DNA from: an uncultured virus (IMG/VR IMGVR_UViG_3300025070_000023)
Lineage: Duplodnaviria > Heunggongvirae > Uroviricota > Caudoviricetes
Length of the DNA: 64,000 nt
Virus record (IMG/VR): IMGVR_UViG_3300025070_000023
Strand: one strand, 5' to 3'
Shown here: piece by piece, positions 43,500 to 60,339 of the stretch
Layout: every line of letters begins with the position of its first letter
How positions within the stretch are numbered: the first letter of the stretch is position 1
Translations under genes and position numbers: made by a program
The notes under the pieces: model-generated
Told to the model about the DNA's origin: nothing
The model's input: the letters and a program-made list of their open reading frames with translations, nothing else
Databases searched by the model: none

Positions 43500-43508
43500 A
43501 TAATCACC

Positions 43509-44939: not shown

Positions 44940-44949
44940 GATATTTCAC

Positions 44950-45414
44950 CTAGTCCTCTTTGTAGGGGCGATATCTAAACATAGGCAAAACCTTCATTTG
45001 GTTATACATATCCTCGGGCATTATATCATCTACTTGAGAATACTCTTCTATTCTTAACCCTCCTCTTTTTTCTACCATGTCAAATAGTCTTTGATTATCT
45101 GTTCCTTTTAATGGATTTAATAAAGTCACTTGTGCTTTATCCGAGCCTAGTTTGGAATCCCTATATTTGAGAACCTTACCATAAGAACCTTTGACAAATG
45201 AAAAACTGTTTCCTACAAAATAAAACTTATCGAATTCCTTGAATGAAGTATATCCTTTTAGTTTTCCAGTATCGTCATCGAAATCTGCAACAATATTAAG
45301 AGGATGAATAATAGAAGGATATCCTTTATCTTCTGCCTTTATGAATTCATCTAGGTCTAAGAGTTTCTCTTCGGGTAGAATCTCTATCCTCTTTAATATG
45401 TTCCACCAAGACAT
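44950..45414 (-). CDS. Tagged protein (MSWWNILK), unknown cargo
   Basis: Start reassigned to ATG 45414 just after upstream stop. Confidence 0.7.
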   Translation of the reverse strand: MSWWNILKRIEILPEEKLLDLDEFIKAEDKGYPSIIHPLNIVADFDDDTGKLKGYTSFKEFDKFYFVGNSFSFVKGSYGKVLKYRDSKLGSDKAQVTLLNPLKGTDNQRLFDMVEKRGGLRIEEYSQVDDIMPEDMYNQMKVLPMFRYRPYKED

Positions 45415-45415
45415 T

Positions 45416-45784
45416 TCAACTACCTTTACGCCACTTTTTGTTTTTCTTTTCTTTGGTTTTCTTAGGACTCCATTTTTCTTTATTAGCCCAATAAGCCGCA
45501 GACATTTTCCCACGCTTGATATTTTCAGCATGACGAGATTTGAAGGCTTCTCTTTGCCCTTTAGTTTGATTTGTTTTGACACCTTTCTGTCCGAATTTCA
45601 TGTATTTTGCTTTCTTACTTTTGGCATCCCAAGCCATTACATGATGAGACTTGCTTTTATCATCTCTTAGTGCCTGTGCGTCATTCAATCCGGAAAGACC
45701 TTTTTTTCTTGCTCTTTCCAATGCCCGTTTTCTAGGACTTTTGGGTTTCTTTTTCTTTTTGAGAATATCCATCCAATCACTCAT
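45416..45784 (-). CDS. Tagged basic protein (MSDWMDILK), DUF5754-like cargo
   Basis: KFGQKG...FKSRH...SAAYWA..KW recalled similarity. Confidence 0.65.
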   Translation of the reverse strand: MSDWMDILKKKKKPKSPRKRALERARKKGLSGLNDAQALRDDKSKSHHVMAWDAKSKKAKYMKFGQKGVKTNQTKGQREAFKSRHAENIKRGKMSAAYWANKEKWSPKKTKEKKNKKWRKGS

Positions 45785-46352
45785 ACGCATCACCTATTAG
45801 ATATCCTAATTTCTTTCCTGCTTCTATATCGCTAGGGTAGTGGCTACCCATTTGAATTCTAGATAGTGATATTCTATCAGCCATTTGTTTTAACTCTTTC
45901 TTCTTATTTGGGTATTTTTTACCTAACACTCTTTCTAAACCATGTGCGGCCATTGAGTGACCACTAGGAAAAGCAGGAGTATCGTCTGTAGTTGTTTTAG
46001 TGGATTTAATTTTATTACTTATTTGATGGGGTCTTGGTCTTTGGTATTTCATTTTTAATGACATGGCATAATAATTAATATCTTTAATTAAATCTTCATA
46101 GTCTTCTTTATCTGCACCGACAATATCAAACATCTCTTTTTGCGGCTTAAGGTCTGCATCTTCCATTTGTTTTGGATTTAGTTTTTTCTCTTTAATTATT
46201 TTTAATATGGCGGGTATTTCTGTCTCTTCTTTTGGATAACTTAGTTTAGGAATATCTATTTTTATTTTTGGACTCCTCTCAAGCATAGCCTTTTTCTTAC
46301 TAGAAAGTGTGCCTTGCCACTTTCTTTTCTTGAGAATATCCATCCAACTCAT
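45777..46352 (-). CDS. Tagged PAP2-family phosphatase (MSWMDILK)
   Basis: K-x6-RP, PSGH, SR-x5-H-x3-D motifs. Confidence 0.85.
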   Translation of the reverse strand: MSWMDILKKRKWQGTLSSKKKAMLERSPKIKIDIPKLSYPKEETEIPAILKIIKEKKLNPKQMEDADLKPQKEMFDIVGADKEDYEDLIKDINYYAMSLKMKYQRPRPHQISNKIKSTKTTTDDTPAFPSGHSMAAHGLERVLGKKYPNKKKELKQMADRISLSRIQMGSHYPSDIEAGKKLGYLIGDAYE

Positions 46353-46356
46353 GCTA

Positions 46357-46707
46357 TCACTTCGGGTTATGAGTATAAATATCTCCGTCTTTGTGCATGA
46401 ATACTTTACCGTCTTTTTCTAATTCGGCTAAGGCTCGTTTTATTTCTGCCTCTTCACCAAACTGTTTTAGATTTTTCATACCTAATGCCCCGCCTTCTTT
46501 TTTAATTTCGGCAAGTATTTTTGCTTTTATATCTTGCTTAACCATTCTTCCAACGGAAGACCTTTGCCTTGCCCCTTTACCTGTTTTTCTTCTAACTATT
46601 TTTTCGGCTTTTTCACGCATCATGTTTCTAAATCGCATTAAGTCTTGAACTTGTTTTTCTTCTTCGGGCGTTAAAGGCGGTGCCTTCAGTATATCTTTCC
46701 ATGTCAT
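46357..46707 (-). CDS. Tagged protein (MTWKDILK) with wHTH-like C-terminus
   Basis: IKRALAELEKDGKV. Confidence 0.65.
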   Translation of the reverse strand: MTWKDILKAPPLTPEEEKQVQDLMRFRNMMREKAEKIVRRKTGKGARQRSSVGRMVKQDIKAKILAEIKKEGGALGMKNLKQFGEEAEIKRALAELEKDGKVFMHKDGDIYTHNPK

Positions 46708-46737
46708 GCTTTCATCCTCTTTGTTTTTCTTTTTCAT

Positions 46738-47466
46738 TTAACCACCTATACCGTATTTAATTTCTAATAGCCTTAACTGCAATAACAATAAAAATAATTC
46801 TTTAGGTCGTTTCATTGATACACCAACTGCATTACCTATGAACATATCCATATCATTTTTTGATATTTGTTCGCTAGTGCTTAGATTATTAAATAACTTA
46901 GGGAAAGTATCAAGACCTTGTTCTAGTTCATCTTTAGTTATATTAAATATTTTATATCCAAACAAACTATCAATATTGGTTGCTGTTGCTACTGCTTTAG
47001 CAGATGCAGTAGTTAAAACATCGGCAGCGATAAGATTGCTTTTGAATATAGTATAATATTTATTAAATTCATTAGTAGGCATAACTTCAAAATCAACTTT
47101 ATTTTCAGACCCAGTTCCTCCAAGCATTATATGTTGCCTTCCTGTCATCATCGTAGTATCATTAAAATCATAAAATAATTCTACTTCATCTTCTGTTAAT
47201 TTTGCGACATTTATTATGGGCTTACCTGTTATTCTAAAATCTCCACCTGTGCTACCGAATAAAGCATAAGGCATAGACTCATATATATTTGTAGACCAAT
47301 ATTCGCTTGAACCACCTTCTTGATTTCCTTGATAAATAGTTTCCACTATTTTTTCATCAAACTTTGGTAGTCCTTCTTGCCAATAACTACCAGTTTCTCT
47401 TTCATCAAAATTAGGATTTTTTAATCTATATGGAGACTTTAGAATATTTTTCCACAAAATATTCAC
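46738..47466 (-). CDS. Tagged protein (MNILWKNILK), unknown cargo
   Basis: GTG start overlapping upstream stop. Confidence 0.65.
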   Translation of the reverse strand: MNILWKNILKSPYRLKNPNFDERETGSYWQEGLPKFDEKIVETIYQGNQEGGSSEYWSTNIYESMPYALFGSTGGDFRITGKPIINVAKLTEDEVELFYDFNDTTMMTGRQHIMLGGTGSENKVDFEVMPTNEFNKYYTIFKSNLIAADVLTTASAKAVATATNIDSLFGYKIFNITKDELEQGLDTFPKLFNNLSTSEQISKNDMDMFIGNAVGVSMKRPKELFLLLLQLRLLEIKYGIGG

Positions 47467-47951
47467 CTCCCCATATCAAAGGATTCTTCTAAATCTTTGG
47501 CGTATCTAAGCATGTTTCTGCCTTCTCTAATCCTTCTTCTATTGCCAGTAATTAACAACTCGCCAGTTAATTTCATCATCTTTATTGTTTTTTGAAACAT
47601 GGCTTCTGTTCCTTCATCTAATTTATCGGAGTATTTTCTACGCTGTGTATATTTCCCCCTTTCAAAATCCTTCAAAACATTTTCAACTATTCCGTTGTTG
47701 ATTCCTTGTTGTAGACTACCCTGTGATAATTCAAGCCATCTACCATCAGCATAAAATTCAGCAAGAAAACTATAATACTCTTCAAATTTTTCCTGTGGAA
47801 CTTGTATTGGTACTGAAGAAAGATTCTGTGGTTTAGATGTAAAGACATTACCTATATTTTGTTTAGTTCCTTTTCTTTGTAACCAAAGATTAGCATTAGC
47901 GGCCATTCTGCCAACTATTGCTGTCTGTTTGATTACTTTGAACCAAGACAT
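47463..47951 (-). CDS. Tagged protein (MSWFKVIK)
   Basis: N-terminal motif. Confidence 0.7.
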   Translation of the reverse strand: MSWFKVIKQTAIVGRMAANANLWLQRKGTKQNIGNVFTSKPQNLSSVPIQVPQEKFEEYYSFLAEFYADGRWLELSQGSLQQGINNGIVENVLKDFERGKYTQRRKYSDKLDEGTEAMFQKTIKMMKLTGELLITGNRRRIREGRNMLRYAKDLEESFDMGR

Positions 47952-47952
47952 A

Positions 47953-48219
47953 TCATCTACCTTCTACTCTACGATATACCTTTTTAGCAGTCTTTCCTCT
48001 AGGAACATGCTGTTTTCCCTTTTTCTTTCCTTCGCTTTTCTTGCGATTTTCATATGCCTTTTGGTTATCAGTAAGTGCATCTGCTACTGCTTTAGGGGCA
48101 TACCTATCATTTTTTCCATCACCAAGAGGTTGCCAATTTTCTTTATTCCATTCATCCATATCTTTTTGCTTATCGGTTAAACCTTTAAGAATATTCCACC
48201 AATTACTTTTTATTGACAA
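47953..48219 (-). CDS. Tagged protein (..NWWNILK), resembles second half of DUF5872
   Basis: QKDMDEWNKENW...RYAPK...NRKK...GKQHV; start TTG 48219 or GTG 48228. Confidence 0.6.
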   Translation of the reverse strand: MSIKSNWWNILKGLTDKQKDMDEWNKENWQPLGDGKNDRYAPKAVADALTDNQKAYENRKKSEGKKKGKQHVPRGKTAKKVYRRVEGR

Positions 48220-48715
48220 AACCGCCACCTGCCTTTTGATATCTTCTATTTAGTTCTTGAGATTTACGGGCAGACCACTGACCTGCGGCAGTTCCATGAG
48301 TATTTTGATTAAGTAAAGTTGCGTGTATTCTTTCCCTTAGTTTCGGTTGAGTATATACTCCTTTAGGCGCAGTATATCCTGATTTCTTTTTCTTTTTCTT
48401 TAGAATATCTTGCCAAGACTTACCTAATGTTTTATTAAAACTTCCATCTTGGAGTTGCCTATATCCTGCTCTAGTAGCGGCTCCTTTCATACTCATGCTA
48501 ATTTTCCTAGACATTTTTTCTCCCATGTTTCTAAAATCCCTAGTAAGGGCGTTTTTGGTTCCTTGAGTTTCTAATTTTTTAAGCAAGTTTTCATAGAATT
48601 CTCTATACTCGCTATAATCTAATCTAAACTCGTCACCCAAATTCATCAAAGCAAATGCTTTATCTGCTGTTTCACTAGGTATCTTATATTTTGCTTTGTT
48701 TAATATTTCTGTCAT
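48203..48715 (-). CDS. Protein with internal tag (SWQDILK) followed by a region resembling first half of DUF5872
   Basis: YTQPKLRERI...GQWSARKSQ...YQKAGGGF. Confidence 0.65.
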   Translation of the reverse strand: MTEILNKAKYKIPSETADKAFALMNLGDEFRLDYSEYREFYENLLKKLETQGTKNALTRDFRNMGEKMSRKISMSMKGAATRAGYRQLQDGSFNKTLGKSWQDILKKKKKKSGYTAPKGVYTQPKLRERIHATLLNQNTHGTAAGQWSARKSQELNRRYQKAGGGFVNKK

Positions 48716-48720
48716 AATTA

Positions 48721-51249
48721 TCACCTAAATTCTGCCTTAATAAGATATACTTGGTCTGCACTTATTCCATATTCTTTTGCTATATTGTTGTGAGAATCGT
48801 CACCCGTAACTATCTTTTCTACTTCATAAACGCTCAAATCAATCTGTTGCTCTACTTGCATTTTATTAATTACTTTATTTATTCCGTGAGTATTGAGTAT
48901 TCTTCGGCCATGAACAACCTCTTTTCCTAATTGCTTTCTAATAATATCGTGAGCCTTCAGCATCTTATGCAATAGAACTGGCAAGTCTATTTGGACATTT
49001 TCAAATAAATCTTTGAGTCTATTGTATTGTTTTCTTTTGGTAGAATCCTGCGTTAATGCTCCTTGATTTCGGTCTAACCATGTAGGCAAGGCAAATATTG
49101 GGAATCCTTGTTTTTTATTGTGCTGTTCATAAAACGCATCATACCTTTCTTTGATTGTCTTTCGTGCAAACTTTCTTTTTCCGAACTTTTCTAGTTTTTC
49201 TTCATCAAATGCATCTTTAGCAAAATGGTAAATTATAGCGGCACAATAATTATCATTTTCTTCTTCCTTTCCGAATATTCTAGTTAATCCATCAGCCGCT
49301 TCCACGCCTTCATCTATCAAATCTGCCCCAATTGTAACTCCCGAATCAAACATATTTTCTAAAAAGTCGGCTATGCTTCGTAAATCATCGTTGCTAGCCT
49401 CATTTAAACTTCCCTCAAATGCCATTTCTATGGAACTAGATAAGACAGTCTCCACTCCTAAATCTACACTGAGTAATTGGAAAACTTGTGTACCTAAACT
49501 TCTTCCAAAGGTAGGAACGGAAATCGGTAAATAACCTGCATAAATAGGATTGAAGAAATATTCTACTGCTGATTTCATCATCTTTTTTAGCGCATCGGAA
49601 ACTTCTTCCATTACCTCTCTAAGTTCTCCACCTCTTTGTAGAGGAACAGGGAATTCTGTTTTAGGTGCGACTCCTAATCTTTTTTTATCTCTACTATCCA
49701 TCATTGAACCCCTCAATCCTGTAGAACTTCTAATTTGGACTTCTGCTCTAAATTGGTCTGCTGTCAATAGCCTATACAAATCTTCAAAGAAATCTTTAAT
49801 CATATCTAAATTATCTAAACTTATTTTTTCACCATTAAGTGCTTCAAAACTCTCACCTTTAGGATAAGATTCAGCAAAGTTCGAATTAGTCATTACTGAT
49901 ATAGGTAGGGCAAATTTAGCCTTGTAGTCCTCATCTAAAACAGTAGTATCTTCCATCTCATCAGCCCATCTTTGTAAATCATATTGAGTGTTTAAAGAAA
50001 TTATTTCTTGGCCTTCTAGACCTTCTCTATTAGAGAGGCTTTCTTGTATATCCTGTAAAGCATCTAATAATTCTAATTCAGCCTCTTCTGTAATTGATAC
50101 TAATTTATTATTAGTATTATCTTCATAAATTAACAGTGGGTCTGCTACTGCTCTTAACTTTGAAACATCACCACTAAATTCGGTAGTGTTTTCATCAGTA
50201 TATTGCCCTAGACTTTCTCCGGATAGTGTCTGCCCTCCTCCCGCATCTTGGCTAAGACTAGACATTAAATCTGCTGTTAATTCAGAATTTATATCTGCAA
50301 AACTAACAGGGTCATCTTCATATCTTTCTTCTAATGATTCTTTATCAAACAAATCTTCTGCTATCATTATGTTAAAGATAATGTTCCAAAACTTTTGTCT
50401 TCTATTTGTGAAGTCTCTATCTACAGATGGGAAATAAGCAACATATTGTAACTTGTTTAAGTCTATTTTTTGTAAATCTTCTAAAGCGTCTTGAGCCTCA
50501 TCAGCCTCTTCGGGAAATTGTAATTTTTCTAATTTCTCAAATAATTTTTCAGTATCTTCTTTGAACTGCTCGAACTTTTTAGTGGTACTATTCCAAAAAT
50601 CATAAATTTCTATTCTAGTAGATTTTTTAGATGCATCTGCTACTCCCAAATACCTCTTGACAGGAAACTTTCTTTCAACTATTGATATTTCTGCTTCTTT
50701 TTCTTCCATATCCTCCGATAATTTTTCTATAATAAAATCATAGTTATCGGCTAATATTTTCAAGTCATCGTTCTGTGAAGCCCCCGCTACTGCGGCCTGT
50801 AGGCTTTCATTTTCTAGTAAAGAAATGTCTTTATTTCGTATTTCTATATTTCTCCTATCCCTTAGTTTAATTTTAACCAAGTCATTATAGTCTACTAAAA
50901 CACCATCTACGACTATATTCATATCAAGTAGTGGCTGTATTACTGACCTAATTTGTTTGACTCCTCCTTCCAAAACCGCCCTAGTTCCTGTTCCGGACAA
51001 ATTTCTTATTTGTTTGTTAAGGTCTTTTTTGAGTTCATCAGTTTCCTCTTTTATGTATTTTTTTCTAGCCTCTAAGTTTTGTGTAGTTTGTTCAGCCTCT
51101 TGGTTTGGTTTATCGGGAAATTTCTCGTTGGCTTCCTGTTCTATTTGTTCTATATATGGTGCAAGCATTCTTCCACGAATAGCCTTTCTTTGGACTTTAT
51201 TTGCTTCACTTAGAAATTTAAGTTGTTCTTTATCAAATTCGACTTTCAT
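48721..51249 (-). CDS. Large acidic protein (842 aa), possible internal virion protein
   Basis: Long helical D/E-rich ORF, no recognised motif. Confidence 0.7.
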   Translation of the reverse strand: MKVEFDKEQLKFLSEANKVQRKAIRGRMLAPYIEQIEQEANEKFPDKPNQEAEQTTQNLEARKKYIKEETDELKKDLNKQIRNLSGTGTRAVLEGGVKQIRSVIQPLLDMNIVVDGVLVDYNDLVKIKLRDRRNIEIRNKDISLLENESLQAAVAGASQNDDLKILADNYDFIIEKLSEDMEEKEAEISIVERKFPVKRYLGVADASKKSTRIEIYDFWNSTTKKFEQFKEDTEKLFEKLEKLQFPEEADEAQDALEDLQKIDLNKLQYVAYFPSVDRDFTNRRQKFWNIIFNIMIAEDLFDKESLEERYEDDPVSFADINSELTADLMSSLSQDAGGGQTLSGESLGQYTDENTTEFSGDVSKLRAVADPLLIYEDNTNNKLVSITEEAELELLDALQDIQESLSNREGLEGQEIISLNTQYDLQRWADEMEDTTVLDEDYKAKFALPISVMTNSNFAESYPKGESFEALNGEKISLDNLDMIKDFFEDLYRLLTADQFRAEVQIRSSTGLRGSMMDSRDKKRLGVAPKTEFPVPLQRGGELREVMEEVSDALKKMMKSAVEYFFNPIYAGYLPISVPTFGRSLGTQVFQLLSVDLGVETVLSSSIEMAFEGSLNEASNDDLRSIADFLENMFDSGVTIGADLIDEGVEAADGLTRIFGKEEENDNYCAAIIYHFAKDAFDEEKLEKFGKRKFARKTIKERYDAFYEQHNKKQGFPIFALPTWLDRNQGALTQDSTKRKQYNRLKDLFENVQIDLPVLLHKMLKAHDIIRKQLGKEVVHGRRILNTHGINKVINKMQVEQQIDLSVYEVEKIVTGDDSHNNIAKEYGISADQVYLIKAEFR

Positions 51250-53612
51250 GTTGTTACTCTCCTTATTATTGGTGGACTCGCTGATGATAGTTTATCTAAT
51301 ACTTCCTTTACCATAGTATCTTTAAATTGTTCGGGATTTTCTATTAACTTTTGGACGGTTTGTTTGAAGCCTTCGACGATATCATCTCTTGCTCTATTTA
51401 GAATTGAAGCCATATTGTCATTTAACTTTTCTGCTTCTTTCATGGCTTTATCGGGATTTTCCTGTATATTTGAGTCTATTATTTTGTAAGATTTTTTGAC
51501 TTCATCCCCTCTTATAGAGGCTATAACTCCTAAAAAGATTAAACTCCTTTCAGCACTAATGACATCCAAAGCACCCTTATCTCGATTGTAAGTTTTTACA
51601 TGGTCAATTAGATTGTTTTCTTTAGCAAAATCTATTAAAAAAGCAGGGAAATTACCCTTTGAGTTTATTTGATTTCTAAGTTTTTGTGTAGATTCTTTTA
51701 TATCTCCACTAAGACCTTCCTTTAATTTTGCTTCTAACTCTTCTATTTTTTGTTTGAGTTTTTTCTCGGATTGAATTACCTTAGCCCTTCCTCCTTCTTT
51801 GGGTTTGGCTGTGCTTAATTTTCTTTCTTTTGGTTTCCCTTCTACTTGGGATAGTAGTTTTTTAGCCCTTTCTAATTCATCCTTTATTCTTTCTTCTATC
51901 ATTTCAGTAGTGCCTGTTTCTACCTGTATTCCTTCATTTTCTTTGGCATCTTTAAAAGTAAATGGCATAAAATCATTCACTTCATTCCCTTCGTCGTCTT
52001 CTTCTTCAAAAGTAAATATTTTAGCACTATCGGCTCTATCTTTACCATCATACTCTTTTATTTTTGGAGAACCGTCAGGATTCCTAACAATATTCCCATC
52101 ATTATCTCTTTCTTCTGCTTCATATTTGGCAGGACTACTTCGGAAAAAATAATCTACTCTAACTTCATCTTCTTCATATCCTTGTTCTAATAAATATTTT
52201 TTAATTGCTTCTGCTTCTTTAACAGTATAACTATTTTTTAGAAACTGATATGTTTCGTTTCTTACTATTTCCACTTTATCAGTTACTATTGCATCTGCCC
52301 TTTCACTATCGGTCAAAACTTTGTAGACTTTTCTTCTTAATTTATCAAATGGTAAATTTATATTCTCTATTGAACTTCTAAATATTCTAAGAGGAACATT
52401 ATAGTCTTCGCTTTCTCGTTTTCCAGTATCGGGTAAAGTCCTAGTAATGTCTTCTACGATAAGCGTTTTTGCCTGTTTTTCGGACAGGCTTCCTTGTGTT
52501 CGTATTTGGTCAAAAAATACATCAGCCCAATTTTGTTTTTGAAATACATTTTTCATAATTATTTCTGCATAGGGATTAAAATTAAAACTTTTTTTACTGC
52601 CTTTTTCTAAAAACAATAACTTAGGTAGTTTTACTATGCGGGATTTATCTTCTAATATTTCTTTAAATCTTACTGGTTTAAAACTAGTAACTACTCCTGC
52701 AACTCTATCTATGATTCGCATATAATTTATGATTGAACTTGCTCCGAAGGGTTCTACTAATTCATATTTGACATTTTTAGCGGATAAAGTTACTGCTTCT
52801 ATTACTTTAGGGTCAATTTCCACAACTTTAGAGTCAATATTTAACATTAAACCATTTTTATCCTTAAATTTGTTATATAATTGTAGAGCAACTGCTTTTT
52901 CTTTTACCGCATCGTCATTATCTAAAATTTCAACTTTATTTTCCTTGTCTCGCTTGGTTTTAGGTTGCACAAGGAGCCTAAAATCAGTTAGAGTTTTGAT
53001 ATTTAGAAGAATTACATCTCCATCCACTCTAGCCGCATTAGTATTCGACTTTCCTCCTAGATTTTCTGCTAATTTTTTCATTTCTGCGTTGCTAGGTGGT
53101 GTTTGAGTAAAATAAATGTAAGATTTTTGAGTATCAAGGCGCAAATATTTCAATTTGGCGGCTATTTTTTTGTTTTTCTTTAGTGTGCTTACTCCCAAAG
53201 ACCCAAATCTGTCAATTTTTTCTAAAATTTTAACAACTTCATCGTGTTTTCCTTCATTTTTTAGTTGAACTGCTTGGTCAAGCAACTTTTCTATCTCTAC
53301 TTTTGGCAAAAAAGTTAAACTTTCCATTAATTCTGTTAAGTTTCTTTGTATTTCATCCATTGATAAGTCCATGTGGCCGGTATTCTTCCAAGTTTCTACA
53401 AATTTTTCTAAAGGAAGTTGGCCAGTTCCAACCTGTCTAAGAGTATTCTTTATTGTTTCAAGCCCGCCTTCGGTGTCTGCGTCTCCGCTAGCCACGGCAT
53501 CTTTTACTTGCTGTAAATATTTTTGAAATTGCGCCCTATTTACTAAATTATAGGCTATCATAGTTTTATTAGATTGCACTTTAGGCATCTTTAGAACTGC
53601 TTGCCACGACAA
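51246..53612 (-). CDS. Large tagged protein (MSWQAVLK, TTG start, 788 aa)
   Basis: GGTGA RBS before TTG-TCG-TGG. Confidence 0.7.
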   Translation of the reverse strand: MSWQAVLKMPKVQSNKTMIAYNLVNRAQFQKYLQQVKDAVASGDADTEGGLETIKNTLRQVGTGQLPLEKFVETWKNTGHMDLSMDEIQRNLTELMESLTFLPKVEIEKLLDQAVQLKNEGKHDEVVKILEKIDRFGSLGVSTLKKNKKIAAKLKYLRLDTQKSYIYFTQTPPSNAEMKKLAENLGGKSNTNAARVDGDVILLNIKTLTDFRLLVQPKTKRDKENKVEILDNDDAVKEKAVALQLYNKFKDKNGLMLNIDSKVVEIDPKVIEAVTLSAKNVKYELVEPFGASSIINYMRIIDRVAGVVTSFKPVRFKEILEDKSRIVKLPKLLFLEKGSKKSFNFNPYAEIIMKNVFQKQNWADVFFDQIRTQGSLSEKQAKTLIVEDITRTLPDTGKRESEDYNVPLRIFRSSIENINLPFDKLRRKVYKVLTDSERADAIVTDKVEIVRNETYQFLKNSYTVKEAEAIKKYLLEQGYEEDEVRVDYFFRSSPAKYEAEERDNDGNIVRNPDGSPKIKEYDGKDRADSAKIFTFEEEDDEGNEVNDFMPFTFKDAKENEGIQVETGTTEMIEERIKDELERAKKLLSQVEGKPKERKLSTAKPKEGGRAKVIQSEKKLKQKIEELEAKLKEGLSGDIKESTQKLRNQINSKGNFPAFLIDFAKENNLIDHVKTYNRDKGALDVISAERSLIFLGVIASIRGDEVKKSYKIIDSNIQENPDKAMKEAEKLNDNMASILNRARDDIVEGFKQTVQKLIENPEQFKDTMVKEVLDKLSSASPPIIRRVTT

Positions 53613-53618
53613 TATAAA

Positions 53619-53858
53619 TCACCTGTATAAAATATATCCTGCGGCTCTCGCTAACAGCCTTAAAGTGTCATATTCATCACCATCGGGAAAATCTAATTCT
53701 TCCCATTGGTTAAATGTAAATCGAATTGCATCATAATATTTATTTTGTTTATTATTTTCTAGCCATTCACGAATCGTATTAGCATGTTCTTGTTTAACAC
53801 TAATATAATTACCCTCTTTATCTTTAGGGCGGTGTTTAATTATATTTAGCCAACTCAT
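53619..53858 (-). CDS. Tagged protein (MSWLNIIK)
   Basis: ATGA overlap with upstream gene. Confidence 0.65.
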   Translation of the reverse strand: MSWLNIIKHRPKDKEGNYISVKQEHANTIREWLENNKQNKYYDAIRFTFNQWEELDFPDGDEYDTLRLLARAAGYILYR

Positions 53859-54520
53859 TGTAACTTCTCCTGCATTCTTTGTTTGATGTCTAACCAAATC
53901 TCCGGATTATTCTGTGCTAATACTTCTTGAACTATTTGCATTTGGGCAACAATAATGGTATCTTGTCTCTTGTGAACCAATTTACCCTTAAACTCCATAA
54001 GATATTTTAGCGACTCTCTAATTTCTCTAGCAAGTTTTGTTAAAGCATCAATCATCTTTGGGTCTAAATCATTTCCTAAGTCGTTGAACACTTGCTCCAA
54101 CCTAACATCTAATTTAGAAACATTGTTAGAAAGTAATTCAACTTCATTAACTTCTTTTCTTGCTATCATCATAGCGGCACTTTCTTGAACAATAGGCATT
54201 AAATGGTGTTTCATGTGCCTTTGGATTTGTTGTTTAGTAGTATCTAATGCTTCTGCAACAGACTCACTTTCAATACTACCTTCACTAATTGCCTGTTCAT
54301 AGTGTTTTCTCATTGGGTCTACGCACAATTTGCATTTTGGATTCGAACTCATTTTATATTCGCCCATGTGGTTTCTTTGGTGTTGTGCCGCAGTTCCACT
54401 TCTCCAACCATACTTCTCATCTAATTCATCACAAGTTATTTCTCCGGAGTCGAGCATTCGCTCTAATTCTGCCCTGTCTTCATGTTGGCACATGCCGCAC
54501 CTTTTTCGGCTAATGGCCAA
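53855..54520 (-). CDS. Protein with two CxxC...HxxxH repeats and coiled coil; terminase small subunit candidate
   Basis: CGMCQH...HQRNH and CKLC...HMKHH, each with HTH-like spacing. Confidence 0.5.
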   Translation of the reverse strand: MAISRKRCGMCQHEDRAELERMLDSGEITCDELDEKYGWRSGTAAQHQRNHMGEYKMSSNPKCKLCVDPMRKHYEQAISEGSIESESVAEALDTTKQQIQRHMKHHLMPIVQESAAMMIARKEVNEVELLSNNVSKLDVRLEQVFNDLGNDLDPKMIDALTKLAREIRESLKYLMEFKGKLVHKRQDTIIVAQMQIVQEVLAQNNPEIWLDIKQRMQEKLQ

Positions 54521-54521
54521 T

Positions 54522-55823
54522 TTATCTCCTCCAAAGATTCTGTTGCCAAAATTTAGAAATTACTTTAGTATCAGGCTTATACTTTGAATTTTTATCATCT
54601 ACACTATCGCCAAACTTTTCTCTTGCAGTTTTTCTATAATCAAAACCGCCCCTTCTAGTATTTTGCCACGCTCTAAAACCATTTGGTGCTTTCTTTTCTT
54701 TACTCCCAAATTTTCTTTGAAGGGCTAAATCTACTAGACCTATAACCGGAGTAGCAGTAGAAGTTAATCTCATTCTGTTAAAATAAACTAGTATTCCGTC
54801 TTCTCCCGATTCTATTCCCGCTAAGCCCCTAACTAAGTTTTGGTCACGGTTTCCTAATGTTAAATCAGTAGCATTGAGGCCGCTTCTAACTTTATTTGTT
54901 AATAGTCTACCACCTGCATTCCAAAGAGACTCATTGGTTACAACCTTGTCAAAATATTCTCTTACGGATTCTATTTTGTTCAATTCCGAAGCAGGAGTTC
55001 TAGGAGGAATATTATCTAACTTAATACCCACAGGGCCATCTCTTTCTAATTCTTCTTCTGCTTCTCTCATAATTTCTATGAGTCCTTTTGGCTTGGAAAA
55101 TTTAGTATCTGTTTTAGAAAATAATGCCAAGTGTGGAGGATTTTCCCCCGCTAGCCAAGAAGGGTCTACTCCATTACCTTCACCTGCATAATTGTCAGTC
55201 TTATAATGCCCTTGAACTTCTTTTTCTTCTATTACTTCACCTGTGTCGGGGTCTTTTATTTTATCAGTAAATAATATGAAAGCAGGGTCAAATGCTTCAG
55301 TACCTCCTCCTGCATCCTTTCCTGTGTCTTTATATTTTTCTAATTCATTTGCGAATTCGGTAATTAGTTTTGCTTCTGCCTTGGTCAAGAATCTGTTTTC
55401 TTCCATTATCTCGTCAATCTTATCCAAAAATTCAATCGCACCTTGACCCGACCTTCCTTTGTTTCTACTACCGTCACGAATAATATCTTCTGTCTTTAGG
55501 TGCATTTTAAGAAACTTATACAAATTACCTACATTTTTAGTTTCCAAATCCCCATCAGTAATGTTGGTGCAATTTGTTTTCCATTGTTGGTATTTACTAG
55601 GGAAAGAATAGTTTGGGGCATCTACAGGATTACCATTGATGTCTATTTCATCTTTCTTCTTTTCGTCTTTGTTGCCCTTCTTCTTTTCATTTTTTAGAAG
55701 GTCGTCTTTTTTCTTCTTTTTCTTTTTAGAATATGATGTATTAAACATAGCGGGAGAAGATGTAGTGGTAACAGCACCTGCCATTTTTTCTTCTTCATCT
55801 TTTAGAATATTTCTCCATGACAT
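54522..55823 (-). CDS. Tagged protein (MSWRNILK) with poly-Lys tract
   Basis: N-terminal motif, K8 run. Confidence 0.7.
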   Translation of the reverse strand: MSWRNILKDEEEKMAGAVTTTSSPAMFNTSYSKKKKKKKDDLLKNEKKKGNKDEKKKDEIDINGNPVDAPNYSFPSKYQQWKTNCTNITDGDLETKNVGNLYKFLKMHLKTEDIIRDGSRNKGRSGQGAIEFLDKIDEIMEENRFLTKAEAKLITEFANELEKYKDTGKDAGGGTEAFDPAFILFTDKIKDPDTGEVIEEKEVQGHYKTDNYAGEGNGVDPSWLAGENPPHLALFSKTDTKFSKPKGLIEIMREAEEELERDGPVGIKLDNIPPRTPASELNKIESVREYFDKVVTNESLWNAGGRLLTNKVRSGLNATDLTLGNRDQNLVRGLAGIESGEDGILVYFNRMRLTSTATPVIGLVDLALQRKFGSKEKKAPNGFRAWQNTRRGGFDYRKTAREKFGDSVDDKNSKYKPDTKVISKFWQQNLWRR

Positions 55824-55833
55824 TCTAATCACC

Positions 55834-56196
55834 TTAAATTCCTTCTCTACCGAAATAATATACTGTTTCTTCTAAAGCATCTTTCATGCTAGCGATTGGG
55901 TCTTTTCTAAATTCTTCAAAGGATTGCTCTTGTATTTGTCCTCGTAAGTTGTTAGTATATCCTAGAATATCCTTATCGTATTTACTAGAGGGTCGAATAT
56001 TATCTATGGCCTGATTAAAGGCTTCTTCATAGCCCATGTCTCGTTTCAACCGAATTACATCTTCAACAAAATTAAAAATTATATCTTCGTTCTCTATGAG
56101 AAATTCTGTTCTCTCTACTTCTTCTCCGAACTCAAGATTATATCTCTTGATGGCATCTACATCATATCCTTTTCTCAACTGTTCCTTCCACGACAT
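55834..56196 (-). CDS. Tagged protein (MSWKEQLRK, variant)
   Basis: N-terminal motif, GAGGTGA RBS. Confidence 0.7.
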   Translation of the reverse strand: MSWKEQLRKGYDVDAIKRYNLEFGEEVERTEFLIENEDIIFNFVEDVIRLKRDMGYEEAFNQAIDNIRPSSKYDKDILGYTNNLRGQIQEQSFEEFRKDPIASMKDALEETVYYFGREGI

Positions 56197-56201
56197 TTTA
56201 A

Positions 56202-56399
56202 TCACCTCTTAGTAAAAACACTTCTAGCAACGCTTCTACCCTTTTTCTTTGCCTGTAAAACCTTGAAGTCTTTTTCATCTATTTTGTTTTTTGGGGGGGC
56301 TTGTTCGGCTATTTTCTTTTGATTACCAAAAAGTTTCTTTTCGAATTCTTCTCTCTCCACATCGGTTTTTTCGGTTTTGAGAACTTTTTTCCATGACAT
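56202..56399 (-). CDS. Tagged protein (MSWKKVLK)
   Basis: N-terminal motif, GGTGA RBS. Confidence 0.7.
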   Translation of the reverse strand: MSWKKVLKTEKTDVEREEFEKKLFGNQKKIAEQAPPKNKIDEKDFKVLQAKKKGRSVARSVFTKR

Positions 56400-56444
56400 A
56401 GTTTTCACCCCTTATCTATCCGTTAATGCCCATATGTTATAGTT

Positions 56445-56693
56445 TTAACTGCCTTCTACTTTCTCCATTATAGTTACCAAAACAGTTCTTATTGCATCTG
56501 CCAACATATAATGCTTTTTAGCAAGGTCTTCTAACCTTTCCATATCTAAATCTTTTTCACTAAAAAATTCTGCAATAGTTCTCTCTATATTTTTCAATGT
56601 TATAATCTGTTGTCCTATAACATCTATGGCCATTTCATAATCTTTGAATTGTGTTCCAATTCTTTCATCTTTTAATATTGTTTTCCATGTCAT
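56445..56693 (-). CDS. Tagged protein (MTWKTILK)
   Basis: N-terminal motif. Confidence 0.7.
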   Translation of the reverse strand: MTWKTILKDERIGTQFKDYEMAIDVIGQQIITLKNIERTIAEFFSEKDLDMERLEDLAKKHYMLADAIRTVLVTIMEKVEGS

Positions 56694-56702
56694 AGTATCA
56701 TC

Positions 56703-57830
56703 TCATAGTGTTTCTAATAAATGCAAAAAATATCTAGAATAGGCTCTTGCATTTTCGGGAGTAGTTGTAAAATATTCTTCCTTAGCGTGAGTGGTTCCTT
56801 CCAAAGAAGACATTTTTCTATCTGCTTCTTGTCTCTTTTTTAAATACATATCAATGGCTTTTTTGATAGTCTCATCTTTCATTACCTCTATCATTCTGCC
56901 ATATTTTTTTACTTCGGAAGTATCTAATGTGTTTATTATTTCTCTAGCGAGGGCAACTGGCATACCTAAATCAACTACCTTTCTGCTTAGAATTCTTTTC
57001 TCAACAGGTCGCCTTTTAAGAACAGTCTGCCAATCATTATTGGGTGAATCTCCCTTTTTTACATTTTTTGAGTTATAGAGACTTAATTCTAATTTTATAC
57101 CTCTTCTAGCCTCTCTTGTTGAAAGGAAAGGAACAATTGACTCTAACTGTTTTATTATCGTATTTTTCATGTTCATTAACTCCGATTTAATTTTTGCATT
57201 TTGCTCGCTTGATAATTTTACTCTACTAACTAGAGGCTTTAGTATCTCATATTCTTCTTGACTCATACGCATTGGTTTATTATCATAATAAGAATTAAAC
57301 TCGTTATATATCGTTGTTTTTAATTTTTTAATGTGAGACTCATCTGTTAAGTTTCCGCCTTTTAGCCCGATGTTATCTCTAAAGTCTCTTGACAACTTTA
57401 GATATTTTTCTACAAGAGGTGAAAGTGTTTCTTCAAATTTTTCTCTTGCTTCCTCTAAATCATCTAGATATTGTTCATGGTTTGTTTCTTTTAAGGTTTC
57501 TATTCTTTCCCTTCTATTTTTTTCGTCATCCCGTGGGTAATGTAAATCTGCTATCCTGTTCTCTTCTCTATTGAATTTGCTATATTCATTCCATATTTCT
57601 CTATCTATATCGTCCATCCCACCGGAAGGTGCGATAATTACTCTTTCCATTACTCTTTTATATGTATCAGTCATAGAGGCTTGAAGCCTTAACTGGTTTT
57701 GTTCTCTTTTGATTTCGCTATTATCTCTTATAGCAGGGGTAGACATCATAAATCTACTAGGGTCTACTCCGCCCTTTTTTCTTTTAGGGATTTTAATTTT
57801 CCTGTTTTTTATGATGTCTTCCCAACTCAT
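56703..57830 (-). CDS. Tagged protein (MSWEDIIK) with second internal tag (DWQTVLK)
   Basis: Two motif copies. Confidence 0.7.
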   Translation of the reverse strand: MSWEDIIKNRKIKIPKRKKGGVDPSRFMMSTPAIRDNSEIKREQNQLRLQASMTDTYKRVMERVIIAPSGGMDDIDREIWNEYSKFNREENRIADLHYPRDDEKNRRERIETLKETNHEQYLDDLEEAREKFEETLSPLVEKYLKLSRDFRDNIGLKGGNLTDESHIKKLKTTIYNEFNSYYDNKPMRMSQEEYEILKPLVSRVKLSSEQNAKIKSELMNMKNTIIKQLESIVPFLSTREARRGIKLELSLYNSKNVKKGDSPNNDWQTVLKRRPVEKRILSRKVVDLGMPVALAREIINTLDTSEVKKYGRMIEVMKDETIKKAIDMYLKKRQEADRKMSSLEGTTHAKEEYFTTTPENARAYSRYFLHLLETL

Positions 57831-57934
57831 TTCTTACCACCTGTAACAAAACACTTCTTTGACTTTGACTCTTTCTTATCTACTTCCTTTGATTTTGCAT
57901 CAAACCACTTATCGAGATAATTGCACCTTGTCAT
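57827..57934 (-). CDS. 35-aa untagged microprotein
   Basis: Manual translation MTRCNYLDKWFDAKSKEVDKKESKSKKCFVTGGKK; ATGA overlap. Confidence 0.55.
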   Translation of the reverse strand: MTRCNYLDKWFDAKSKEVDKKESKSKKCFVTGGKK

Positions 57935-57943
57935 ATTATTCGC

Positions 57944-58255
57944 CTACAAATTTTTTAGTTTATCGTATAGTTCGCCTATTAATTCATACGCTTCATCTAG
58001 CAAAGTTTCATTATCTAAACGGTCAATTAGTGGCATGCAATCTCCTAAAGCATCCTTTGCATTATTCTGCAAAAAAGTAATAGTCGGGTTTCTTACCCTA
58101 CCTACTTCCCGTTTCTTATTTACCTTATCTTCGAATTGAGGAATAAGAGGATATTCTTTTGACGGCAATCCTTGTTTGATTCTCTCCCTTGCTCTCTTTA
58201 CATCTGCCGGTAAATCTTCTTCTTCTTCTTCTTTAATTATTTTTTTCCAACTCAT
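57944..58255 (-). CDS. Tagged protein (MSWKKIIK)
   Basis: N-terminal motif, GGAGG RBS. Confidence 0.7.
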   Translation of the reverse strand: MSWKKIIKEEEEEDLPADVKRARERIKQGLPSKEYPLIPQFEDKVNKKREVGRVRNPTITFLQNNAKDALGDCMPLIDRLDNETLLDEAYELIGELYDKLKNL

Positions 58256-58258
58256 AAT

Positions 58259-58705
58259 TTAATCCTCCTTTTCGGAATTTCTATCTAAAAAGGTAGAATA
58301 ATCCATAACTACCTTTTTGAAGCCATTGGCATGAACTAGCCAATGTTGATTATTGTCTTTGTCAAAAAATATATCTAAAACCGATGAAGAACGAAGTGGT
58401 TTAGAAACTTCTAGTTTCATGTTCCAACCATCATTTTCTCCCGCAAATTCTTTAGCCCATTCTTCATCCACATTATTGGTTAATCTAAATAATGATTCGG
58501 GGCCAACTTCCTTTCCATCAAATTGAACGCTAGCAACATGCTCGTAATATTTATCAAATAATTCAGGAGTTATATCTAGAGGGGTTTGACCATACCCATT
58601 AACCATCAAAAGTTCCTTCCGTATGTTTTCGGGAACATCGTCTCTAAAGAAATAAACTTCCCAATCTTTACCATTAGATAATTTTAAAATATCTTTCCAT
58701 GTCAT
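58259..58705 (-). CDS. Tagged protein (MTWKDILK), YodL-like cargo
   Basis: LFRLTN...RSSSVLDI...WLVHANGFKKV resembles the YodL pattern. Confidence 0.65.
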   Translation of the reverse strand: MTWKDILKLSNGKDWEVYFFRDDVPENIRKELLMVNGYGQTPLDITPELFDKYYEHVASVQFDGKEVGPESLFRLTNNVDEEWAKEFAGENDGWNMKLEVSKPLRSSSVLDIFFDKDNNQHWLVHANGFKKVVMDYSTFLDRNSEKED

Positions 58706-58714
58706 ATTACTCAC

Positions 58715-59038
58715 CTAATACCCATACCTAAATGTATTTTCGGGAAACATCTCACTACTCGTAGGTTCTGTCGGAGTTTTGCTAAAATCAATATCATAAA
58801 GTTCTCCATAGAAATAATCCCAAACATTATCATAATCCGATTTTTCCTTTAGGAACTTATTTAATTTATCTCTAGGTAATTGACTCACGGTATAATCAGG
58901 GTTTTCAATAATGTTATTCATTACATCTACATCGTCTTGACTAAACATATAATCATCGTCGGGGTAATCAAACTTTGAAAAATATTCAATAAGACCTTCT
59001 CTAGTTAATTCTGCTTTTAGCACATCTTTCCATGTCAT
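58715..59038 (-). CDS. Tagged acidic protein (MTWKDVLK)
   Basis: N-terminal motif. Confidence 0.7.
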   Translation of the reverse strand: MTWKDVLKAELTREGLIEYFSKFDYPDDDYMFSQDDVDVMNNIIENPDYTVSQLPRDKLNKFLKEKSDYDNVWDYFYGELYDIDFSKTPTEPTSSEMFPENTFRYGY

Positions 59039-59047
59039 ATTATTCAC

Positions 59048-59437
59048 CTAATCATCTCTTGAAGCAAAATCAGCCGACCTTTCTCTTCTTTCGGCTATTC
59101 TCCTTTCTGCTTCTGCTTCTTCTCTAGCCTCTCCCTCTACATCGGAAGAATACAATTCAAATTCTTCTTTTAAAATTTCATTAATATCCTTATCAAAATC
59201 GTCTATCATTTTTTGAACGGAATCTCTTATTTCATCATGTAATTCTACTGCCAAAAGAGTCGCCTTTTGTCTACCGTCAAATTCTTTAAGTCCTAGTTGA
59301 AAATATTTAACTACTTCTGTCATGTTTTTATTTACACTTTCGAAAATCTCATCCCTAAGTTTTAACAAATCATCACTATGATTAGACCCCATCATATCGA
59401 GTCTTTTCTTTTCTTTTAATATGTCGTGCCATGTCAT
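59048..59437 (-). CDS. Tagged protein (MTWHDILK)
   Basis: N-terminal motif. Confidence 0.7.
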   Translation of the reverse strand: MTWHDILKEKKRLDMMGSNHSDDLLKLRDEIFESVNKNMTEVVKYFQLGLKEFDGRQKATLLAVELHDEIRDSVQKMIDDFDKDINEILKEEFELYSSDVEGEAREEAEAERRIAERRERSADFASRDD

Positions 59438-59446
59438 ATTATCCAC

Positions 59447-59716
59447 CTAATAATCACCCTCAAATTCAGCCCTACTTTGAGCGTCATCATCTATTCTCAT
59501 TTGTTGCATTTTGCGTATTTCATCAGCAAGAACTTCCATAGCCATATATTCGGGGTCAATATAGGATTTTAGTCTCTCACTCTCAGATTTAGCGTTTTTA
59601 ATACATTCAGGTCTTTTAGCCAAGTCTAATATTGCATCCTCTATTACATCTAAAGATTCATTCCTAAGTGAACGGTTAATATTTAGTGCTTTCTTTATCT
59701 CTTCTTTCCATGTCAT
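59447..59716 (-). CDS. Tagged protein (MTWKEEIK, variant)
   Basis: N-terminal motif. Confidence 0.7.
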   Translation of the reverse strand: MTWKEEIKKALNINRSLRNESLDVIEDAILDLAKRPECIKNAKSESERLKSYIDPEYMAMEVLADEIRKMQQMRIDDDAQSRAEFEGDY

Positions 59717-59726
59717 ATTATTCACC

Positions 59727-60125
59727 TTAAACATCATACATTCCTTGAATGGCCGCTTTCAATTCTTCAACTGTTAAATTATCAATGTTTGATTCTATTA
59801 TTCCACTATATCCATCATTAGCGGTAAAATCTGCAAGTGCTATATCTTTCCCACTTGGGGTAGAAAACTCTATTCTGTAATGTGCTAAATCAGCATCAAA
59901 CAAATCCCCTTGTTCTAAATCATCGGATTCTCCTTCATCATCTGCTAGGCTTCTATCAAATGTAATGTCTAAGTTTAAACCATCTGCTGAATTGAAACCG
60001 CCTGTTTCCATTTGTTCAAAATCATATTGCATTTTGCCTCTTCCCCAATCTTCTATTAGTTCATCTAATTTAATCTGCAACTCTTCTTTTTCATCATCTT
60101 TTTTTAGTATATTTTTCCATGTCAT
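59727..60125 (-). CDS. Tagged highly acidic protein (MTWKNILK)
   Basis: N-terminal motif; D/E-rich. Confidence 0.7.
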   Translation of the reverse strand: MTWKNILKKDDEKEELQIKLDELIEDWGRGKMQYDFEQMETGGFNSADGLNLDITFDRSLADDEGESDDLEQGDLFDADLAHYRIEFSTPSGKDIALADFTANDGYSGIIESNIDNLTVEELKAAIQGMYDV

Positions 60126-60126
60126 A

Positions 60127-60339
60127 TTATTCACCTAACCGATTAACTAACTCTTGAACTTCTTTGAGTAATACAGGTTTTAACTTTTTATCTACTAAGG
60201 TATCAAGAAAATCCATATCTCTATTTTCTGTCATAGTATCATCATCAAATAATTTAGAATACATTGTGTCTATCATAGCAGATACAGTTTCCTGTAATCC
60301 TGCTTCTGTTCTAATTTTCAATATATTCTCCCATGTCAT
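60127..60339 (-). CDS. Tagged protein (MTWENILK), first gene of array
   Basis: N-terminal motif, GGTGA RBS. Confidence 0.7.
   Translation of the reverse strand: MTWENILKIRTEAGLQETVSAMIDTMYSKLFDDDTMTENRDMDFLDTLVDKKLKPVLLKEVQELVNRLGE

Follow-up and report, generated by a model that had tools for sequence, protein, structure and literature searches.

A short peptide tag on unrelated magrovirus proteins as a candidate label for loading cargo into the capsid

We describe a short peptide that is shared by otherwise unrelated proteins encoded next to the large terminase gene (terL) of an uncultured tailed virus, IMG/VR record IMGVR_UViG_3300025070_000023. The analysed stretch of 64 kb, further referred to as the window, was read as a magrovirus, that is, a virus assigned to Marine Group II archaea; the host is presumed from this group assignment. 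In the window, 21 genes at positions 44950–60339 start with this peptide, further referred to as the tag. Its consensus is M-[S/N/T]-W-x-[D/N/E]-[I/V]-[L/I]-K, and in most cases a charged linker comes next. We show that the tag is a module on which selection acts at the peptide level, that it is limited to the head-assembly arm of the genome, that its position within the protein can vary, and that it resembles the C-terminal tail of the scaffold protein. We consider it moderately probable that it is a portable label which loads unrelated soluble proteins into the capsid and is probably clipped off there by the head protease.

Results

The tagged array

An earlier note, made from the letters of the window, had listed 21 gene starts with a common N-terminal tag. 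All of them were found at the listed positions on the minus strand. The pattern W-x-x-[IV]-[LI]-K fits 19 of the 21, and the other two bear the variants W-K-E-E-I-K (59716) and W-K-E-Q-L-R (56196). Eighteen tagged genes open with ATG-x-TGG. The gene at 45784 starts with M-S-D-W and the one at 53612 with TTG; at 48219 a TTG start (or GTG at 48228) stands 5–8 residues ahead of the Trp, and at 47460 the start is TTG-TGG, with an alternative GTG at 47466. An AGGTGA-like Shine-Dalgarno sequence lies about 7 nucleotides (nt) upstream of most tagged starts. The lengths of the tagged proteins, 65–788 amino acids (aa), agree with those given in the note; at one copy each the 21 proteins amount to 3,796 aa.

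The strict DNA pattern ATGNNNTGGNNNNNNRTHNTNAAR has 14 matches in the window, all on the minus strand and within 45391–60339, and a mean of 0.05 matches in 100 shuffles. With automatic calling of open reading frames (ORFs), the strict tag was present on 17 of the 23 minus-strand ORFs in 44950–60339 and on none of the 42 minus-strand ORFs elsewhere in the window. The proteins had been described as unrelated beyond the tag, and indeed none of their 210 pairs gave a BLASTP match at E<0.01 once the tag was removed. The array was also placed correctly as directly upstream of terL (43509–44939), which starts 10 nt past the last tagged gene.

The following genes, all on the minus strand, are listed from the end distal to terL. 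The first seven encode proteins of 70 aa (60127–60339, MTWENILK), 132 aa (59727–60125, MTWKNILK), 89 aa (59447–59716, variant MTWKEEIK), 129 aa (59048–59437, MTWHDILK), 107 aa (58715–59038, MTWKDVLK), 148 aa (58259–58705, MTWKDILK) and 103 aa (57944–58255, MSWKKIIK). They are followed by a gene of 375 aa (56703–57830, MSWEDIIK) with an additional in-frame copy, W-Q-T-V-L-K, at aa 267 (57015–57032), and by genes of 82 aa (56445–56693, MTWKTILK), 65 aa (56202–56399, MSWKKVLK), 120 aa (55834–56196, variant MSWKEQLR) and 433 aa (54522–55823), in which MSWRNILK leads into an acidic, Lys-rich linker. Then come a gene of 79 aa (53619–53858, MSWLNIIK) and one of 788 aa (51246–53612), which has a TTG start, the tag (M)SWQAVLK and a body from a conserved family. 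Two conserved genes within the array are untagged. One of them encodes 221 aa (53855–54520), has a weak match to a DNA-binding-domain family (phrog_867, 6.3e-5) and belongs to a cluster of 41 members, none of them tagged; the other encodes 842 aa (48721–51249).

Nearer to terL, a 173-aa ORF (48203–48724) contains the internal tag K-S-W-Q-D-I-L-K at aa 104 (W-Q-D-I-L-K at 48398–48415). Only aa 109–169 of it, after the tag, match the stand-alone phage family phrog_17747 (1.1e-11), and the ORF can be read as a tagged gene to which an upstream piece has been fused. The next gene, of 88–91 aa (47953–48228), has N-W-W-N-I-L-K after 5–8 extra residues and matches phrog_14910 on aa 17–84. The remaining genes encode proteins of 162 aa (47463–47951, MSWFKVIK), 240–242 aa (46738–47466, (M)LWKNILK or (M)WKNILK), 116 aa (46357–46707, MTWKDILK), 191 aa (45777–46352, MSWMDILK followed by an acid-phosphatase-like PAP2 enzyme), 122 aa (45416–45784) and, directly upstream of terL, 154 aa (44950–45414, MSWWNILK). 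In the 122-aa protein, MSDWMDILK and a Lys-rich linker precede a domain that is untagged in other phages (phrog_7595, 4.2e-17, aa 22–105).

Distribution of the tag among relatives

Relatives were taken from IMG/VR as 80 loci around TerL homologues with 81–99% identity. Among the ORFs of 40 aa or longer in these loci, the N-terminal tag was found on 524 of the terL strand and on none of the opposite strand. When tags anywhere within the first 45 residues were counted, 614 of the 1770 terL-strand ORFs had one. We clustered the protein bodies without the tag, which yielded 302 clusters, and called a cluster tagged if at least 30% of its members were tagged. By this definition 174 clusters are tagged, and 107 of these are confined to a single locus. 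The core clusters (terL, portal, ligase, the 842-aa and 221-aa proteins and others) are untagged, the exception being one of the 82 members of the cluster of a 454-aa protein. In mixed clusters, most of the untagged members have variants of the tag (I-L-Q, I-I-H) or miscalled starts.

Five complete relatives of 90–97 kb contain 8–16 strict matches each, all on the terL strand around terL and spanning approximately 13–21 kb; the reversed pattern, used as a control, had no matches in these five genomes. In the gene maps of relatives, tagged genes lie on the upstream side of terL, in the interval from terL to portal, and past portal up to the genes before ligase and protease, interleaved with conserved head genes. 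The motif scan suggested by the earlier note found both the N-terminal enrichment and the restriction to the terL region.

In 1.03 Mb of loci from a second magrovirus group, with a capsid protein 63% identical, 137 tags were counted on the coding strand and none on the opposite one. The four examined loci from tailed viruses with a capsid protein 45% identical contained no tags, and the absence of the tag at this distance indicates that the system is specific to the magrovirus lineage. A search of a genome collection (GTDB) with the capsid protein gave only two virus-like contigs. These magrovirus-like contigs, L246 and L247 (NZMJ01000024.1 and NZMJ01000101.1, capsid proteins 77% and 59% identical), are assigned to a Maricaulis sp. 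metagenome-assembled genome (MAG); the examined stretch of these two contigs has no strict tag. The placement in this MAG is probably a binning artefact rather than a host signal. In the GenBank phage collection the TerL query retrieved only distant relatives with at most 27.7% identity.

Codon usage at the tag

The codons used for I, L and K of the tag match the background of the same genes. Leu is encoded by all six of its codons, and for the tag Lys the AAA/AAG frequencies are 0.73/0.27, equal to the background. Hence selection acts on the peptide, and the statement of the earlier note that codons vary and conservation is at the protein level is borne out. The residue after Met behaves differently, being biased to A-N-T codons: AGT makes up 0.84 of Ser codons vs 0.28 in the background, a nucleotide-level preference near the start codon. 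Besides, six distal junctions of the array have 22 nt, TTAGGTGAATAATATGACATGG, in common. A nucleotide translation signal, named in the note as one explanation that would overturn it, is thus largely excluded for the I-L-K core and holds for the residue after Met and for these six junctions.

Tags away from the N-terminus

Strict motifs lie within the first 30 aa in 542 of the 614 cases (~90%) and more than 30 aa into the protein in 72. Most of the latter have neither an upstream Met nor a Shine-Dalgarno sequence and are preceded by Lys-Lys, Lys-Ser or Lys-Gly. Such internal tags mark fusions of the types tag-A-tag-B and domain-tag-body; for example, in one protein a phosphatase is followed by K-S-W-E-D-I-L-Q and then by a Cys-rich body. 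In many relatives a GNAT acetyltransferase gene (Pfam 1.7e-6 and 3.9e-8) is located just upstream of terL. In 55 of the 73 long members of this cluster the tag follows the enzyme domain, and in 18 of the 55 the protein ends at most 5 aa past the tag. Placement at the C-terminus of the GNAT enzyme and at fusion junctions is new here. The position at either end, the flexible segment and the likeness to the tails of two assembly proteins, described below, are the behaviour of a docking motif and not of an N-terminal signal or a translation device. We also considered the product of this gene upstream of terL as a small terminase with a TerL-binding C-terminal tag; this candidate was rejected on the Pfam assignment to GNAT acetyltransferases.

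The tag as an addition to existing domains

Three window proteins match untagged stand-alone phage families only beyond the tag and the Lys-rich linker. The 191-aa protein has a Pfam PAP2 match (1.4e-12) with catalytic motifs invariant in the alignment. Its AlphaFold model has a mean predicted local distance difference test score (pLDDT) of 89.8, and the best match in the Protein Data Bank (PDB) is the acid phosphatase 7f18_A, with a template modelling (TM) score of 0.64. It is predicted to be a soluble enzyme of the class-A acid phosphatase type. The tag is present on 58 of the 69 magroviral PAP2 homologues with at least 49% identity; of the other 11, nine start inside or after the tag, one has a different N-terminus, and one has its sole motif match at residue 86. 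None of 18 distant PAP2 homologues has the N-terminal tag. A membrane-targeting role of the tag, suggested by the PAP2 domain, was rejected given the match to a soluble acid phosphatase and the lack of membrane-like segments in tagged families.

In the AlphaFold models of the phosphatase and of the 788-aa protein, the first ten residues have mean pLDDT of 48 and 42, respectively, vs 89.8 and 77 overall; residues 1–9 of the 788-aa model are below 50. In both models the tag forms at most a one-turn helix detached from the fold, and, as far as these two predictions go, it is a flexible add-on outside the fold.

Similarity to the scaffold tail and the protease junction

The window encodes a prohead protease of the S78 family fused to a scaffold as a long C-terminal extension (33406–34656, minus strand; Pfam, PHROGs and alignment). 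In an alignment of 66 distinct protease-scaffold sequences, the protease domain ends in invariant F-D-I-L-K-Q, followed by an indel-rich Lys/Thr linker and then by a helical region. The C-terminal tail is conserved at W405 (66 of 66), D407 (59), I408 (64), H409 (66) and K410 (64). The tag-like sites of this gene are, on the minus strand, I-L-K at 34597–34605, F-D-I-L-K at 34141–34155, E-T-I-L-K at 33502–33516 and the W-S-D-I-H-K tail at 33427–33444. The same tail is found in a helical head-module protein of 82 aa (37928–38176, minus strand; family alignment), whose gene sits between the portal block and ligase. Its scaffold-type tail M-D-W-S-D-I-H-K-M, with W-S-D-I-H-K at 37955–37972, is kept in 59 of 64 relatives. 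The capsid protein contains an invariant N-x-L-L-K at aa 26–30 (33305–33319) within a variable stretch.

In the second group the scaffold tail is usually M-S-W-x-D-I-H, as in most of the 25 commonest C-terminal variants (70 ORFs), and M-S-W-x-D-I corresponds to the first six residues of the commonest tag. The junction of that group reads F-D-I-L-K in all 12 commonest variants (52 of 70 ORFs). W-x-D-I is thus common to the tag and the scaffold tail, with the same spacing, and is conserved across both virus groups. A scoring matrix built from 476 tags was run on 15,115 positions of 44 untagged window proteins. The protease-scaffold junction was the top-ranked site, and the protease-scaffold took four of the top nine sites, with 2.75% of the positions. 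Judged by these alignments, the tag resembles a copy of the scaffold C-terminal tail, with its D-I-L-K half as at the protease-scaffold junction.

Two further sites deserve mention. In several loci of the second group (L215, L217, L218, L220, L239 and others), a protein of 860–880 aa at the ligase position, just upstream of the protease, has Y-G-K-K-W-K-D-I-V-K-K at aa 44; the site scores approximately 16 bits with the tag matrix, and the window ligase has R-S-R-W-Q-N-A-V-D at the matching place. Should this copy be functional, the ligase of the structural module would count among the head cargo as well. A distant, untagged tailed virus has, immediately upstream of its capsid gene, an ORF (L164:7392-8162) that ends with S-K-M-T-W-R-E-V-E-D-Y-V-A-K-M. 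On this one example, a Trp-centred tail of the scaffold type may be older than the tag system.

Properties of the tagged proteins and their neighbours

Membrane-like segments were predicted in none of the 174 tagged clusters vs 13 of the 128 untagged ones. Several tagged families are very rich in Lys and Arg. The Pfam cut-off was reached by two of 150 representatives of tagged families, namely PAP2 and a pentapeptide-repeat protein (L013:7981-8739, 7.9e-11). The pentapeptide-repeat fold is known as a DNA mimic, and the tagged protein is a possible example. Nine tagged proteins of the relatives (L032:421-1263, L038:154-1005, L069:2712-3524 and others) have an HExxH motif of the metalloprotease type and match no Pfam family. 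The search of the array against NCBIfam, PADLOC and Rfam gave nothing except a weak PhoC match of the phosphatase.

The AlphaFold model of the 788-aa protein (pLDDT 77, predicted TM score 0.59) is mostly helical and multi-domain, and five unnamed viral proteins in BFVD matched it at TM scores of 0.20–0.25. For the 788-aa and the 842-aa proteins, single-sequence and profile searches against PDB sequences gave nothing or best E-values of 0.03–0.36, and the ESM Atlas provided no lead. The two are not homologous to each other (hhalign probability 0.1%). The C-terminal 80 residues of the 842-aa protein are strongly conserved, with invariant H767, R771, D804 and E809 and an end similar to G-I-S-x-E-Q-V-Y-L-I-K; by sequence, this part looks like a small DNA-binding module.

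Genome context

The window contains the head arm, the tail arm and part of the replication arm of a tailed virus, with a GC content of 0.32–0.39 and no tRNA genes. Genes were named using Pfam and PHROGs; the tail, capsid, protease-scaffold, ligase, portal, 454-aa and terminase genes given here are on the minus strand. Tail genes occupy 8–30 kb, and a tail-region ORF of 2066 aa (11347–17547) had no Pfam or PHROG match. They are followed by the HK97-type major capsid protein (32057–33394), the protease-scaffold and an ATP-dependent DNA ligase (34700–37642). The presence of ligase within the structural module is remarked on in the first paper on magroviruses (PMC5434244). The untagged portal protein is encoded at 40318–41952 (phrog_18178, 6e-65), and the untagged large terminase matches phrog_38 (2e-55).

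Between portal and terL, a 454-aa protein (42135–43499) has an HNH or homing-endonuclease-like region at aa 288–416 (PHROG 5e-5, PADLOC HEase 1.4e-4). Since it is present in 82 loci, it is a fixed component of the packaging module and not a mobile insert of the intron type. A small ORF before portal (41953–42134) encodes a Cys-rich, zinc-ribbon-like protein of 47 aa. Signatures of a family-B DNA polymerase were found in separate ORFs several kb apart, a polymerase-domain piece of 300 aa (1221–2123) and an exonuclease piece of 205 aa (6716–7333), which suggests a split polymerase. The 102-aa protein at 61546–61854 matches a family of cyanophage proteins, which this virus thus has in common with cyanophages (Pfam Kyano_Gp96, 2.7e-19; phrog_554, 3e-23).

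Genes are tightly packed from 60622 down to 42135. The gaps do not exceed 45 nt, with a single gap of 113 nt (57831–57943) that holds a Lys-rich ORF of 35 aa whose stop overlaps the start of the next tagged gene. Upstream of this block lies an AT-rich non-coding stretch of 447 nt (60623–61069). A TATA-like run within it, approximately 35 nt before the ATG at 60622, is a candidate promoter that we infer from its position. In 42000–61500 bacterial-type promoters were not enriched (74 vs 73.3 expected), nor were terminator-like sites (15 vs 9.7 expected), and both of the coding-strand terminator-like sites are inside terL. A search for sequencing runs that cover 44950–54900 gave DNA runs of marine metagenomes and no RNA run.

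Discussion

The earlier note had proposed a modular address label that loads many proteins into the head. The part of this proposal that concerns a modular peptide under selection at the protein level stands: the tag is found on at least 174 families, its codons vary as the background does, distant homologues lack it, and it lies outside the fold in two predicted models. The loading into the head, we infer, is supported by the occurrence of tagged genes only among head-assembly genes, the likeness to the scaffold tail and to the D-I-L-K of the protease-scaffold junction, and the lack of membrane-like segments; the tagged proteins would be bound, encapsidated, cleaved and ejected.

In the proposed mechanism, the tag would imitate the C-terminal tail by which the protease-scaffold and the small helical head protein may join the procapsid. 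The W, I and L of the tag would lie on one face of a short helix and be bound by the site that also takes up the tail, whether this belongs to the capsid protein or to a scaffold partner. Once assembly is complete, the prohead serine protease would probably cut after the tag Lys, as presumably at the D-I-L-K junction, and the cut would free the cargo to exit with the DNA at infection. We tentatively extend this scheme to an open loading system, in which any soluble protein that gains eight residues copied from the scaffold tail could be packed and injected, and the same 24 nt could double as a recombination joint.

Several observations weigh against capsid loading. The tag-like sites of head proteins are weak: they do not exceed 7.2 bits, and the median of real tags is 20.7. 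Owing to a His in the place of the tag Leu, the scaffold tail has only 0.8 bits (rank 8). The pattern [IVL][IL]K turns up often, 41 times in the 15,684 residues of the untagged proteins, and the four in the protease-scaffold are only about four times the expectation. None of the 23 array proteins matches an internal head protein family in PHROG, Pfam or NCBIfam, nor do the 150 representatives in Pfam, and for the model of the 788-aa protein the search of PDB folds gave no match at E<=0.001. Packaging would involve a heavy load of 21 proteins, with one as long as 788 aa, vs four such proteins in T4. The array could also be a mere hot spot of accessory genes beside the head genes. Finally, blastn homology between the window array and its relatives ends within 30 nt of the Trp codon of a tag in 119 of 292 cases vs 6.2% for random positions, where the ends are not independent of each other and the comparison is with random positions and not with gene boundaries generally. 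Taken with the 22 nt common to six junctions, these breaks indicate that conservation is partly at the DNA level.

One may therefore ask whether the ribosome-binding site, start and first codons form a DNA device for cassette recombination and strong translation initiation, with the peptide as a by-product. The homology breaks, the sequence common to the six distal junctions and the A-N-T bias after ATG are what such a device predicts, and homology between genomes does break at the common junction. As the sole cause, however, it is highly improbable. Synonymous sites of I, L and K are at background, and both CTN and TTR codons occur for Leu; the tag persists at C-termini and at internal junctions lacking an upstream ribosome-binding site; and scaffold tails, which do not begin a gene, retain these residues too. 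Conservation thus appears at the level of the peptide rather than of the nucleotides. Given the codon evidence and the copies away from starts, the DNA junction would be a second use of the sequence and not the reason for which the peptide is retained: the conserved Shine-Dalgarno sequence and tag codons likely also serve as a swap site for cargo cassettes between genomes. Equally improbable is that the tag is just a recognition site of the protease in a polyprotein-like maturation, with no targeting. The multi-tag fusions (tag-A-tag-B, GNAT-tag-body) and the D-I-L-K at the protease-scaffold junction, before an indel-rich linker, would suit cleavage. However, about 90% of tags are at the very N-terminus, where a cut removes just eight residues; in the 18 GNAT-cluster proteins that end at most 5 residues past the tag, it would remove almost nothing; and nothing at the junction site corresponds to the invariant Trp. 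Moreover, prohead proteases work within proheads (T4, HK97), so that their substrates have to be targeted there first.

A docking role with another destination is a more serious rival, although we still hold it unlikely. The tag might bind another common partner of viral or host origin, for instance the terminase or portal complex, a chaperonin, or an unfoldase or protease that sets when the proteins are removed, and the proteins would then act in the cell without being packaged. A position-independent motif on a flexible segment is typical of short linear motifs in general, many tagged genes flank terL, the set of presumed cargo is large and varied, and the tie between the tag and the capsid protein is indirect. 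On the other hand, the sites of the proteome that resemble the tag most are the protease-scaffold junction and the tails of two head-assembly proteins, and the replication and tail modules have no tagged genes. We retain loading into the capsid as the preferred explanation.

In the surface ocean, magroviruses are reportedly the dominant archaeal viruses (PMC5434244), and most of their genes have no known function. If the proposed role is true, the tag gives a location (the virion) and a timing (entry) to about 20 proteins in each genome and to hundreds of families group-wide. At least a fifth of the head-arm genes would in that case encode rapidly shuffled pre-made effectors, including a phosphatase, an acetyltransferase, metalloprotease-like proteins, a protein that may mimic DNA and many others whose function is unknown. 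Injection of proteins with a capsid-targeting leader would be extended from T4 and P1 to archaeal viruses, on a larger scale; it would be the first capsid-targeting signal known from archaeal viruses and would offer an existing encapsulation tag for a shell with the HK97 fold. That cargo is recognised by mimicry of the scaffold tail is a testable claim. An eight-residue tag that can be placed at either end is a candidate loading tag for engineered HK97-type capsids, and in metagenomes the tag could be used to pick out candidates for virion cargo and for counter-defence genes. In the magrovirus papers that were searched we found no description of the tag, and in the paper library no paper on capsid targeting in archaeal viruses.

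Comparison with known systems

Short, terminal peptides on flexible linkers that dock unrelated enzymes inside a shell are known from encapsulins (cargo-loading peptides) and bacterial microcompartments (encapsulation peptides), and the encapsulin shell has the HK97 fold. These are cellular compartments with other peptide sequences and with no cleavage or ejection. For the role of the W-S-D-I-H-K tail, a possible model is the P22 scaffold gp8, whose C-terminal element is essential for coat binding, as described in 10.1101/2022.12.13.520362. In P22 this element is a helix-turn-helix domain, and no cargo is known to copy it.

Among viral systems that carry proteins in the head, the ejection proteins of SPN3US and phiKZ-like phages and the C-terminus of their prohead protease have removable propeptides with one cut motif, for which targeting to the prohead core was proposed (PMC7411985). 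Their propeptides are long (64–130 aa) and have no common short consensus. In P1, DarB's N-terminal 30 residues suffice to carry a reporter into the capsid, and the anti-restriction cargo is delivered at infection (PMC9024508). Its authors found no consensus for the Dar N-termini, whereas the magrovirus consensus is sharp and present on a fifth to a third of the genes of the head-assembly strand.

The closest parallel is the capsid-targeting sequence (CTS) of T4, an N-terminal peptide of approximately 10–20 aa on IPI, IPII, IPIII and Alt, which directs them into the prohead and is removed by the prohead protease (PMC3012670, PMC7411985). The short cleaved leader of T4 internal proteins, which the earlier note had cited as established, is confirmed by these two articles. 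The T4 cargo exits with the DNA and includes anti-defence proteins and an enzyme (PMC3012670, PMC7411985); four CTS proteins are described (PMC7411985). In both viruses a short N-terminal peptide is the sole common part of diverse, fast-evolving proteins, in the magrovirus on 21 genes of the window and in 174 clusters of relatives. No sequence relationship to the T4 internal proteins or to their leader was found. As to a candidate cleavage motif of the T4 type, D-I-L-K is present at the protease-scaffold junction in 66 of 66 sequences and L-L-K in the capsid N-terminus, with low scores. By analogy, it is moderately probable that the magrovirus tag works like the T4 CTS without being a member of that family. 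It differs in scale, with approximately 21 tagged genes per genome and at least 174 families vs four proteins in T4. It also differs in its likeness to the scaffold tail, in its additional C-terminal and internal placement and in the presumed archaeal host, and it is described here from sequence data.

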